Of a DNA stretch of 64,000 nucleotides, positions 5,417-57,837 are shown piece by piece (the stretch's first letter is position 1; every line of letters starts with the position of its first letter). Source of the DNA: Candidatus Daviesbacteria bacterium (lineage in GTDB: Bacteria; Patescibacteriota; Microgenomatia; Daviesbacterales; UBA10151); assembly GCA_016184225.1 (NCBI GenBank), contig JACPDA010000004.1, positions 208,372 through 272,371 of the forward strand. Direction: 5' to 3'. Below the pieces are notes generated by a model, which saw only the letters and a list, made by a program, of their open reading frames with translations, did not search any database and was not told the DNA's origin. A program made the position numbers and the translations under genes.

Positions 5417-5595
5417 TTGTGGTATACTAATTAAGTAAGACCCGCCTGCATCGCTATGCGAAGCATTGCGGGCAGGGAGATTTGGGGATTGTAAAGAGTT
5501 AGGTAGTCATCAGCTATCAGTCGTCCCGATTGAATCGGGACAGCTGAAGACTGAGAGCTAATTACCTCTTACCCAGTTTCCAAATCCTCCATTTT

Positions 5596-5672
5596 AAGAG
5601 TCTAGAATCGAGAATCTAGAGTCAAGGGAAGAAATTAATTTCCCAGACTCTTGACTCTAGCGACTAGTCACT
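5596..5672 (+). repeat. Heptamer array (N)AGAGTC x4 (5596-5628) plus complementary 20-nt box GACTCTAGCGACTAGTCACT (5653-5672) ending 4 nt before the pnp ATG; hairpin-forming intergenic element
   Basis: AGAGTC/GACTCT are reverse complements; same two-part element recurs at 43315-43424, 46605-46690 and 50906-50970. Confidence 0.6.
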
Positions 5673-5676
5673 ATTT

Positions 5677-55097: not shown

Positions 55098-56501
55098 ATG
55101 GACAAGACCACCCCCCCGGAAAATATTTTCAAAAGTTATGATATTAGAGGCATCTACCCTTTTGAGATTAACGAACAATTTGCTGTTTCTATTACCCGAG
55201 CTATTTACAAATTAATTTCCAATCAACTTTCTGCCACTGCGCCCTTAACTATTGCTGTTGGTAGGGATATGAGGCTTTCCTCCCCGGCTATATATGAGGC
55301 AGTCAGTAAAACTTTGGTGGAACTGGGGGCAAAAGTAATTGACTTAGGGATTGTTTCCACCCCGACTTTTTATTTTGCTGTCTTTAAATACGGCTATGAC
55401 GGAGGTTTGCAGATTACGGCTTCCCATAATCCTAAGGAATATAACGGCATAAAAATTGTCCGGAAATCCCCTACTGGTTTGGTAAAAATTGGCAAAAGTA
55501 CGGGTATGGAAGATATCAAAAGAATGGTAACTCAGAAGGTGGACTTACCTGAGGTTCCCGGTGGAGTTATTACCAAAAAAGAAGGAATAGTTCACGAAGA
55601 GATTGAAAATGCTTTGAGAATTGCCGGGCAGCCAAAACTGAACCCCTTTAAGGTAGTAGCTGATGCGGCCAATGCTTTAGGGGCTTTATACATTGAGGAA
55701 CTTTTTAAATCTATCCCCGGAAAGTTGATAAAAATGAACTTTAATTTAGATGGGACTTTTCCGGTACATCAAGCCGATCCACTGCAGAAAGAGACTTTGG
55801 TTGATCTACAAAGAAAAGTGGTGGAGGAGAAAGCGGATTTAGGGTTGGCCCCTGACGGTGACGGGGATAGGCTATTTTTTATTGATGAAAAAGGCGAAAT
55901 TGTGCCACCTTCAATTATCACCGCAATTGTGGCCAGGGAACTTTTGAAAAAACACAAAGGAGCAACTGTTTTGGCAGATATCAGATATATAATGACTCCT
56001 AAAAAGGTGGTGGAGGAGCTAGGGGGGACTTTGGTCATCACTAAAGTAGGGCATGCATTTATTACTGAGAAACTTCACGAGACCGGTGGGATCTTTGCCG
56101 GTGAATCATCCGCCCATTATTTTTTTAAAGAAACCGGCAATGCCGAGTCGCAACTACCGATGATTTTAACTGTTTTGAAAGTAATGACAGAGGAGCATAG
56201 AAGGTTGTCAGAGGTGGTGGAATCTTTGCGAAGAAGCCATGAGTCGGGTGAATTTAATTTTCGGGTTAAGAATGCCCGGCAAATTATGGAAGCGATCAAG
56301 AAAGAATTTCCGGAAGGGGAGATCTCGGAGTTAGATGGTGTATCTATCTCTTTTGCCGACTGGAGATTGTCTCTTCGGAGTTCTAATACGGAACCGCTTC
56401 TTCGACTCAACATTGAAGTTGATATAAATGGGAATGTAGAGGAGAAAAAAGAGAAAGTAATGGATCTAATTAAAAAACACGCAGTTTTTGACCAAGTCTG
56501 A
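55098..56501 (+). CDS. Phosphomannomutase/phosphoglucomutase (alpha-D-phosphohexomutase)
   Basis: Active-site TASHNPKEYNG; GLAPDGDGDR metal-binding loop. Confidence 0.8.
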   Translation: MDKTTPPENIFKSYDIRGIYPFEINEQFAVSITRAIYKLISNQLSATAPLTIAVGRDMRLSSPAIYEAVSKTLVELGAKVIDLGIVSTPTFYFAVFKYGYDGGLQITASHNPKEYNGIKIVRKSPTGLVKIGKSTGMEDIKRMVTQKVDLPEVPGGVITKKEGIVHEEIENALRIAGQPKLNPFKVVADAANALGALYIEELFKSIPGKLIKMNFNLDGTFPVHQADPLQKETLVDLQRKVVEEKADLGLAPDGDGDRLFFIDEKGEIVPPSIITAIVARELLKKHKGATVLADIRYIMTPKKVVEELGGTLVITKVGHAFITEKLHETGGIFAGESSAHYFFKETGNAESQLPMILTVLKVMTEEHRRLSEVVESLRRSHESGEFNFRVKNARQIMEAIKKEFPEGEISELDGVSISFADWRLSLRSSNTEPLLRLNIEVDINGNVEEKKEKVMDLIKKHAVFDQV

Positions 56502-56511
56502 CTTGGTTTTT
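56491..56511 (+). terminator. Hairpin ACCAAGTC/GACTTGGT + TTTTT overlapping the phosphohexomutase stop codon
   Basis: Direct reading. Confidence 0.5.
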
Positions 56512-56548
56512 GAGGACTTGCCAAAATAAGGTGTTTGTGGTTTACTAA

Positions 56549-56656
56549 TACATACATCAAGAGTGTCCGACATTTTGTCGGACCGGCAACCGTCAATCCC
56601 GATTCAATCGGGATAAAGTCACGGTGCCAACCCCGATATTAAATCGGGGGATGTGG
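56549..56656 (+). ncRNA. Candidate SAM-binding riboswitch (SAM-I/IV-like core) in the metK leader
   Basis: AUCAAGAG P1-like segment, hairpin, GGCAACC (56585-56591), GGUGCCAA (56623-56630), terminal hairpin, then AUGUGG able to pair back with the 5' CAUACAU. Confidence 0.4.
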
Positions 56657-56686
56657 TCCAGGTCTTGGACAAACTTATGTTCAGGA

Positions 56687-56711
56687 CCTCTCGAGAATCG
56701 GGAGGTTTTTT
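56687..56711 (+). terminator. Intrinsic terminator / SD-sequestering hairpin (CCTCTCGA-GAA-TCGGGAGG + TTTTTT) forming the riboswitch expression platform; its 3' arm contains the metK GGAGG Shine-Dalgarno
   Basis: 8-bp stem with one G-U pair, 6-U tract, ATG 8 nt further. Confidence 0.5.
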
Positions 56712-56718
56712 AAAATAT

Positions 56719-57837
56719 ATGAGTCATCTTAATGGTGTCTTGACAACTTTTACTTCTGAATCAGTTTGTGCCGGCCACCCCGATAAAATTTGCGACCAAA
56801 TCTCAGATGCTATTTTGGATGCAGTATTGGCCCAAGACCCGAAAGGTCGGACTGCTGTTGAATGCTTGGCGGGCAATAACAGGTTAGTTATTGCCGGAGA
56901 AATAGGAGCCAAAGCCAAAGTGGATTTTAAAAAAATTGCCCGGGATCAAATAAAGAGATTAGGTTATACAGATCCTAAATTTAATTTTTCAGATAAATCC
57001 CCGATTGAGGTATTTGTTCACGAACAATCACCGGAAATTGCAATTGGTGTAAAACGAAAGGGTGCAGGAGACCAAGGCATGATGTTTGGTTTTGCTTGTA
57101 GGGAAACCGAGAGTCTGATGCCTCTTCCAATCTCTATGGCACATGCGCTGGTTAAGAGAATGGATCAGGTTCGGGAGGAGAATATAGTCAAATACCTTCG
57201 TCCTGATGGCAAATCTCAGGTCACCATAGAATATAGACAAGGTAAACCATACAAGGTTAATCAAGTTGTTATAGCGGTGCCTCACAAAGAATCCATAAAC
57301 TTAGATGAGGTAAAAGATGATATTTATAATATTGTCATCATACCGGTGCTGGATGTTTTTGGTTTCACAATTGATAAAAAAGATATTATTGTTAACGGCA
57401 CCGGTATTTGGCATCACGGTGGTCCGGCCTCTGATTGTGGAGTAACAGGTAGAAAAATCGTGGTGGATACTTATGGTGGGTATGCCAGAGTGGGTGGAGG
57501 AGCTTTTTCCGGCAAAGAGCCGTCAAAAGTAGATCGGGGAGGAGCTTATGCAGCCAGGTTTTTGGCTAAAAACATTGTGGCCAGTGGACTGGCAGACAGA
57601 GCAGAGGTAAGGTTAGCCTATTTTATAGGGGCCAAGAAACCTACTATGCAGGATGTGGAAACTTTTGGCACTGCTAAAAAATCTCACCAAGTAATTCTTT
57701 CTTTTATGGAGAAAATTTTAGATACTTCGGTGGAAGGAATTATAGAAGGCCTTGATTTACAAAGGCCTATTTATTTACCAACAGCCGCTTATGGCCACTT
57801 CGGCCGCGAGCAGTTCCCCTGGGAAAAAGTGGTTTAA
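56719..57837 (+). CDS. metK: S-adenosylmethionine synthetase
   Basis: ..FTSESVCAGHPDKICDQISDAILDA..; start at ATG 56719 (13 nt after GGAGG) rather than track 56653, which lies inside the leader structure. Confidence 0.9.
   Translation: MSHLNGVLTTFTSESVCAGHPDKICDQISDAILDAVLAQDPKGRTAVECLAGNNRLVIAGEIGAKAKVDFKKIARDQIKRLGYTDPKFNFSDKSPIEVFVHEQSPEIAIGVKRKGAGDQGMMFGFACRETESLMPLPISMAHALVKRMDQVREENIVKYLRPDGKSQVTIEYRQGKPYKVNQVVIAVPHKESINLDEVKDDIYNIVIIPVLDVFGFTIDKKDIIVNGTGIWHHGGPASDCGVTGRKIVVDTYGGYARVGGGAFSGKEPSKVDRGGAYAARFLAKNIVASGLADRAEVRLAYFIGAKKPTMQDVETFGTAKKSHQVILSFMEKILDTSVEGIIEGLDLQRPIYLPTAAYGHFGREQFPWEKVV

Follow-up and report, generated by a model that had tools for sequence, protein, structure and literature searches.

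What kind of regulatory RNA lies in front of metK, the S-adenosylmethionine (SAM) synthetase gene, in a genome of Candidatus Daviesbacteria? In the 64,000-nucleotide (nt) stretch of DNA analyzed here (the window, to whose positions all coordinates refer), metK is an open reading frame (ORF) at 56719 to 57837, starting with the ATG at 56719, and its leader lies in the spacer of 217 bases that separates this ATG from the stop codon of a phosphoglucomutase/phosphomannomutase (PGM/PMM) gene (55098 to 56501). The gene and all features of its leader are on the + strand, and the order PGM/PMM, leader, and metK is kept in the relatives examined. An initial annotation, made from the sequence alone, had listed SAM riboswitch-type motifs in order upstream of metK, and every one of them is present. 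The analysis presented here indicates that positions 56553 to 56676 are very probably an aptamer of the SAM-I/IV type (Rfam family RF01725, SAM-I clan), coupled to a terminator that covers the Shine-Dalgarno (SD) sequence of metK, its predicted target. It also brings out parts that the initial annotation had not recognized, namely, the external helix P5, a candidate second pseudoknot (PK-2), and a putative anti-terminator.

The binding core of the SAM clan is complete in the leader, comprising the tandem A-U and U-A pairs of helix P1, the AAGAG of the junction J1/2, and GGCAACC...GGUGCC of helix P3 with its AA and U bulges. The leader was compared with 16 related metK leaders (designated by L numbers), which were gathered by MetK scans of genomes and metagenomes and by exact-protein look-ups, giving 17 leaders with that of the window; the scans brought up mainly distant SAM-I leaders of Firmicutes, along with about six useful relatives, and the look-ups yielded more. 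The core columns are invariant in 16 to 17 sequences, with the crystallized SAM-I/IV RNA included. The 5' strand of P1, UACAUC (56553 to 56558), pairs with the 3' strand GAUGUG (56650 to 56655), as supported by alignment and fold; all 17 leaders keep its A-U and U-A pairs unchanged, and position 4 is either A-U or G-C. The motif AUCAAGAG is found at 56556 to 56563, and within it J1/2 (56559 to 56563) fits the RF01725 consensus and is conserved in all leaders, with G56563 pairing with C56584. P2 (56565 to 56583) folds as an unbroken stem of 7 bp, GUCCGAC/GUCGGAC with the loop AUUUU, without a kink-turn and without a partner for the first pseudoknot (PK-1). Across the family, seven of eight P2 pairs show compensatory changes, and P2 of L188 is nearly identical to that of the window.

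P3 (56585 to 56628), with the strands GGC-AA-CCGU and ACGG-U-GCC, is supported by the RF01725 match, the alignment, and the fold; GGCAACC is located at 56585 to 56591 and GGUGCCAA at 56623 to 56630. Its loop holds a 19-nt insert (56596 to 56614) that forms an 8-bp hairpin, AUCCCGAU-UCA-AUCGGGAU, and is not found in any of the 16 related leaders. J3/4 is just AA (56629 to 56630), and therefore no strand is free there for PK-1. Between P3 and the 3' strand of P1 lies P4 (56631 to 56649), a hairpin of 7 bp, CCCCGAU-AUUAA-AUCGGGG, which is supported by covariation in all four modelled pairs and by RNAalifold; the same stem is present in L184, and the helix, which is optional in the family, is absent from L169, L176, and L180. 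The initial annotation had taken this hairpin as a terminal one; the hairpin is real, but it is the internal P4, as in the crystallized SAM-I/IV RNA. P5 (56656 to 56670) is an external hairpin directly after P1, GUCC(A)-loop-(U)GGAC, which corresponds to the last helix of RF01725, numbered P4 by Rfam, and is part of the minimum-free-energy fold. All four modelled P5 pairs covary over the 17 leaders, in which the helix always starts 0 to 2 nt past the end of P1.

Family membership was assessed by covariance-model scores. In the E-value mode of Rfam, positions 56549 to 56686 match RF01725 across the full model with 40.6 bits (E value, 2.2e-5), the model skipping the extra nucleotides of the P3 loop as well as the 19-nt P4 hairpin between GGUGCCAA and GAUG. 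The other models of the SAM clan, including RF00634 and RF00162, score lower and are dropped by clan competition; the permissive search gives a SAM-clan hit with RF01725 as the best model. Six orthologous leaders exceed the curated cut-off of 41.1 bits (L082, 53.0; L169, 47.1; L188, 45.7; L186, 44.9; L176, 44.5; and L081, 42.8 bits), and four are just under it, as is the window. With a clade covariance model, built on a MAFFT alignment with our own annotation of P1 to P5, the leader scores 70.9 bits and is the sole site found in the window, whereas SAM-I leaders of Firmicutes score 20 to 35 bits. The segment from 56551 to 56711 folds with -70.6 kcal/mol (z = -6.4), a value equaled by none of 200 shuffles. 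A fold that included the DNA upstream of the promoter gave a long-range pairing, which was discarded.

The comparison of homologous leaders provides covariation support, a check named in the initial annotation. In the model-based alignment of the 17 leaders, pairing holds in 92.2% of the cells of helices P1 to P5, and both partners differ in 21 of 29 pairs. This level is not attained in any of 500 shuffles, and slid controls are only 33% to 45% paired. As a control, RNAalifold was run on a MAFFT alignment made blind to structure; it still detects P1, part of P3, and P4, with compensatory changes. The leaders without P4 and without a terminator (L169, L176, and L180) have GACAACC...GGUGCC in P3, and their second P3 pair is an A.C mismatch instead of the G-C of the other leaders. 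As a side observation, the metK leader of L002, a Saccharibacteria metagenome-assembled genome, carries a true SAM-I aptamer at 1336 to 1446 (RF00162, 49.8 bits), and positions 1 to 120 of L083 look alike. Positions 128 to 291 of L003 look hybrid, combining an internal P4 with a P2 internal loop and with an external hairpin that resembles P5, and score 46 bits on the clade model and 25.6 bits on RF00162.

PK-2, in which the loop of P3 pairs with the 3' tail, was assessed by duplex energies, as covariance models cannot represent a pseudoknot. Across the clade, these energies sum to -58.6 kcal/mol, compared with -28.1 ± 5.4 kcal/mol for shuffled tails, and none of 500 shuffles is as low. PK-2 comprises 7 to 9 bp in L165 (UAAAGUUA with UAACUUUA), L188 (UUAAAGUUU with AAACUUUAA), L081 (AAAAGUU with AACUUUU), and L169 (AUAAGUU with AACUUAU), and these pairings differ from one another by compensatory changes. 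At the position homologous to the clear PK-2 of the relatives, the candidate 5' strand of the window is AAGU (56616 to 56619; AUAAAGU with a bulge), and the complementary candidate 3' strand is ACUU (56673 to 56676; ACUUAU with a bulge), which lies within the loop of the anti-terminator described below.

Downstream of the aptamer lies a predicted intrinsic terminator, which would also act as an SD-sequestering hairpin (56683 to 56711). Its core (56687 to 56705) is predicted from sequence and fold to be a G+C-rich stem of 8 bp, CCUCUCGA-GAA-UCGGGAGG, with the loop GAA, followed by U6 (56706 to 56711); an AGGA/UUUU extension continues the stem to 56709. The claim that a terminator holds the metK SD GGAGG in its 3' arm proved correct, and equivalent hairpins recur in 10 relatives. 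A simple promoter and terminator scan listed neither this terminator nor the metK promoter; the former was probably passed over because the stem extends into the U-run with A-U and G-U pairs, leaving too few T residues. Between P5 and the terminator, a putative anti-terminator of 12 bp (56660 to 56671 with 56678 to 56689; -16.9 kcal/mol, z = -4.95) is the structure of lowest free energy for the nascent RNA up to 56697. Three helices are thus mutually exclusive, namely, P5 (56656 to 56670) with the PK-2 tail, the anti-terminator (56660 to 56689), and the terminator (56683 to 56709). Over the full leader, two end states are nearly isoenergetic, one having P5 and the terminator (-70.6 kcal/mol) and the other the anti-terminator (-70.3 kcal/mol). 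The anti-terminator is favored (-66.3 versus -55.9 kcal/mol) when the nascent RNA stops at 56697, short of the terminator 3' arm.

These exclusive pairings suggest the logic of a classical OFF switch, in which SAM binding, switching, and the translational component are predicted from the sequence. With SAM bound, P1, P5, and PK-2 would be locked and the segment from 56660 to 56676 would be unavailable; the anti-terminator could not form, the terminator (56683 to 56709) with its U6 would fold, and transcription would stop. In any read-through RNA, the terminator hairpin would keep GGAGG (56701 to 56705) paired, so that metK would remain off. Without SAM, the nascent RNA would fold the 12-bp anti-terminator first, using up the first bases of the 5' arm of the terminator, and transcription would go on with the SD largely free.

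The capture of the terminator 5' arm recurs among the relatives, while its implementation drifts. The anti-terminator core GGUCC...GGACC is common to L161, L165, and L184, and in nearly all relatives of the terminator type the 5' arm is captured by some alternative pairing in the nascent RNA. The arm CCUCUC is captured by GAGAGG of P4 in L181, L182, L173, and L082 and by AUCAAGAG of P1 and J1/2 in L188. A long-range anti-terminator, in which UCAAGAG of the P1 5' strand and J1/2 pairs with CUCUCGA, was considered for the window and rejected, being 7 kcal/mol worse than the local one; the minimum-free-energy folds of L161 and L165 contain pairing of this type, which in L188 makes a perfect helix of 8 to 9 bp. 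Separately, the terminator 3' arm GAAUCGGGAGG (56697 to 56705) resembles the 3' arms of P4, AAAUCGGGGG (56643 to 56649), and of the P3 insert, CAAUCGGGAU, and because of this resemblance the 5' arm CUCUCGA could also pair with either of them.

The SD, GGAGG at 56701 to 56705 in the terminator 3' arm, lies 13 nt before the ATG, and the idea of a combined transcriptional and translational OFF switch can be judged from the geometry of this region in the relatives. In L165, L188, L184, L081, and L082, the terminator 3' arm contains GAGG or GGAGG and the U-run serves as a spacer of 6 to 8 nt to the ATG, and this geometry supports the idea. In L186 the terminator adjoins the ATG in the same geometry without a clear SD. 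L169, L176, and L180 have neither P4 nor a terminator, and their ATG lies inside P5 or the PK-2 3' strand; as judged from these sequences, their platform would be purely translational.

Several observations weigh against the assignment of the window leader to a functional SAM-I/IV switch of this kind. Its RF01725 score is 0.5 bit under the curated cut-off, and a scan of the whole window at the Rfam gathering thresholds reports nothing in the leader and finds only a tRNA-Pro; the score falls short because the 28-nt P3 loop (12 nt in the model) and P4 count as insertions to the model. The alignment used for the covariation count was fitted to the structure model. PK-2 of the window has 4 bp, or 6 bp with a bulged A, which is at chance level when taken alone (matched by 127 of 500 shuffles), and the insert in the P3 loop could weaken this pseudoknot. 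Covariation lends no support to the anti-terminator core GGUCC/GGACC, which does not vary among the leaders that have it. The spacing of 13 nt between the SD and the ATG is long but plausible, at the upper end of the usual range. Finally, the terminators of L161, L181, L182, and L001 lie 19 to 130 nt upstream of the ATG, and SD overlap is therefore not obligatory.

The weak PK-2 of the window, not significant alone, would also fit an aptamer of the SAM-I four-way-junction type after loss of the kink-turn and PK-1, in which the hairpin at 56656 to 56670 would belong to the expression platform only and not to a P5/PK-2 subdomain. The hairpin at 56631 to 56649 stands at the place of the SAM-I P4, and the CPR (candidate phyla radiation) leaders L002 and L083 carry true SAM-I aptamers, with L003 looking intermediate. 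Such a degenerate SAM-I aptamer is nevertheless quite improbable, as RF01725 outscores the other clan models, P2 lacks an internal loop, J3/4 is just AA, four P5 pairs covary with P5 starting 0 to 2 nt after P1, the PK-2 complementarity is significant across the clade, and an internal P4 also occurs in the SAM-I/IV crystal RNA (PMC6890682). The reduction of PK-2 to 4 bp, the score under the Rfam cut-off, and a P3 insert unique to the window genome among the 17 leaders could alternatively reflect decay, the 19-nt insert and an extra A in the P3 loop strand having disabled switching and turned the leader into a constitutive partial terminator. It is very improbable that the aptamer has decayed in this way: all core nucleotides and helices P1 to P5 are intact, the insert is a self-contained hairpin that leaves AAAGU single-stranded, large P3 inserts also occur in L082, L001, and L003, and the exclusivity of the three platform helices is energetically well balanced.

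A narrower role, in which the riboswitch would act by termination only and GGAGG would be a mere G-rich stem sequence with no separate control of translation, is better supported but still rather unlikely. It would agree with the SD-ATG spacing (window, 13 nt; L173, 14 nt), with the distant terminators of L161, L181, L182, and L001 and the separate SD near the ATG in at least L161 and L182, and with the terminator of L186 that contains no GGAGG. However, L165, L188, L184, L081, and L082 have no SD other than that in the terminator arm, with the U-run directly before the ATG, and positions 56706 to 56718 of the window contain no other purine-rich motif. In addition, the three relatives with purely translational platforms suggest that this aptamer does control translation in some members of the clade. 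A SAM-I/IV aptamer coupled to an SD-covering terminator remains the preferred reading of the leader.

The P3 insert raises a further question about the origin of short palindromes in this genome. The initial annotation had counted the palindrome CCCGAU-AUCGGG three times; with spacers of 3 to 5 nt it does occur three times in the window (and in none of 100 shuffles), at 5525 to 5539, 56598 to 56612, and 56632 to 56648, and the position given for the first copy (5527 to 5547) was a few bases off. The third copy is P4, an ordinary inherited helix common to L184; only the copy in the P3 loop is an insertion unique to the genome. This P3-insert palindrome (56597 to 56613; UCCCGAUUCAAUCGGGA, also given as TCCCGATTCAATCGGGA) is the exact reverse complement, in 17 of 17 positions, of 5524 to 5540 (TCCCGATTGAATCGGGA), which forms the tip of a hairpin of about 110 nt in the spacer between rpsO (ribosomal protein S15) and pnp (PNPase). 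A rough post hoc estimate, not a formal test, puts the chance of identity between two 7-bp hairpins and their loop ends at about 0.003. The spacer (5417 to 5676) folds with -100.2 kcal/mol as a whole (z = -7.7), the long hairpin extending from about 5478 to 5590, and it has no credible Rfam match. It measures 260 nt in the window versus 121 nt in the relative L189 (1004 to 1124), whose S15 is 94% identical; L189 shares the hairpin base with the window but has a different, shorter tip, and the window has three extra hairpin blocks. In its position, the rpsO-pnp hairpin resembles the RNase III-processed pnp leader of Escherichia coli. Relative to the leaders examined, the 17-mer looks inserted at both sites.

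Two other hairpins recur at different places in the related leaders. The 21-nt hairpin ACGUUCAGUUUACAUGAACGU serves as P2 in L169 (825 to 845) and L186 (789 to 809) and as P5 in L181 (827 to 847). The hairpin CCYGAG-N-GUCGARGG serves as P5 in L081 (1135), L173 (835; nested in a longer P5), L182 (744), and L188 (848) and lies inside the P3 insert in L003 (205), and it was not found elsewhere among 188 loci nor in the window. A family of mobile palindromes was sought in the window and not found; perfect hairpins are about twice as frequent as in shuffled sequence, and only the CCCGAU type recurs. These sequences hint, quite tentatively, that Daviesbacteria genomes may copy short palindromic hairpin cassettes (those concerned being TCCCGATTSAATCGGGA and ACGTTCAGTTTACATGAACGT) from the loop of one structured RNA to that of another. 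If so, peripheral helices would turn over by hairpin transposition or templated copying, and the window leader would be a natural test of the tolerance of a PK-2-bearing loop to insertion. This hairpin-cassette observation is the only part of the analysis that might lead to something new.

The setting of the leader differs from that of the Firmicute S-box with which the initial annotation had compared it. The host is Candidatus Daviesbacteria, a member of the Patescibacteria (CPR): its MetK is 75% to 94% identical to proteins named as Daviesbacteria or Microgenomates, those of Daviesbacteria having the N, M, and C domains of Pfam S-AdoMet_synt, and its S15 is 100% identical to a Daviesbacteria protein. 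Homologs of MetK number in the thousands. A putative metK promoter consists of the -35 box TTGCCA (56518 to 56523), conserved among 12 orthologous leaders with an invariant TTG, and, 17 nt downstream, the extended -10 box TGg TTTACT (56538 to 56546), whose pattern T.TG.T...A..T is conserved in the same number of leaders; a consensus promoter scan missed the -10 box because its position 2 is T. Transcription is predicted to start at about 56552 to 56554, i.e., at P1, and the aptamer would form the extreme 5' end of the metK mRNA. Upstream, the hairpin ACCAAGU-CUG-ACUUGGU (56491 to 56511) spans the stop codon of the PGM/PMM gene, with UUUU after the hairpin, and it may be a weak terminator insulating the metK promoter from the upstream gene. 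On the other side, 41 nt 3' of metK and on the same strand, an ORF of 267 amino acids (57879 to 58682) has no Pfam match; this position is occupied by other genes in most relatives, and L188 has an ORF of 266 amino acids without a Pfam hit. The tRNA-Pro gene (anticodon GGG) of the window is located at 59813 to 59884, and a near-identical tRNA lies close to metK in L165.

SAM-I/IV is already a well-established class, as is its control of SAM-metabolism genes, and the window copy is a further member, in a CPR genome; the literature consulted does not report SAM-I/IV from CPR. This copy suggests that classical SAM feedback control over metK is retained in a CPR lineage whose genome is very small. 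When Rfam is used routinely, at the gathering threshold, it overlooks this copy and several orthologs, which are just under the cut-off through peripheral insertions. Daviesbacteria also offers a compact natural series in which one aptamer is wired to an SD-terminator, to a terminator alone, or to start-codon burial, and this series would be useful for studying the evolution of expression platforms.

Among the known SAM riboswitches, SAM-I/S-box (RF00162) shares with the window leader the ligand-binding core, a P4 in the junction, and, as predicted for the window, the terminator/anti-terminator platform and the control of metK. Unlike SAM-I, the window leader has neither the P2 kink-turn (GGAGGGA...UGAAG, present in Firmicute leaders) nor PK-1, in which the P2 loop pairs with J3/4; it has P5 and a candidate PK-2, and it scores lower on RF00162 than on RF01725. 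SAM-IV has a split P2a/P2b with PK-1, lacks P4, and carries an external hairpin after P1 together with PK-2 (PMC6890682); the window leader resembles SAM-IV (RF00634) in its core, its external hairpin, and its candidate PK-2 but differs in its unbroken P2 and the presence of P4. The SAM-I/IV class is defined by the absence of the P2 internal loop (PMC2864571); it lacks PK-1 and has an unbroken P2, a P4 helix, P5, and PK-2 (PMC6890682). The description of the leader as a possible reduced variant was therefore abandoned, as an unbroken P2 without kink-turn and PK-1 is a hallmark of a described class (PMC2864571, PMC6890682).

The window leader departs from SAM-I/IV in its 19-nt P3-loop hairpin, its longer P4 (7 bp), its weak PK-2, and its score under the gathering cut-off. 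Whereas the SAM-I/IV consensus has an SD-like AGGAG directly after P5, the leader has an SD-containing terminator and a discrete putative anti-terminator, and its host is a CPR bacterium. The likeness to SAM-I/IV (RF01725; env87 aptamer, PDB 4L81) extends over the P1 AUC/GAU, the J1/2 AAGAG, GGCAACC...GGUGCC with the AA and U bulges, the unbroken P2 without kink-turn and PK-1, the internal P4, the external P5, the candidate complementarity of the P3 loop to the 3' tail, and the location upstream of a SAM-metabolism gene. At the position of the window P4, the crystallized SAM-I/IV RNA carries ACCG-GAGA-CGGU (sequence in PMC5393176).

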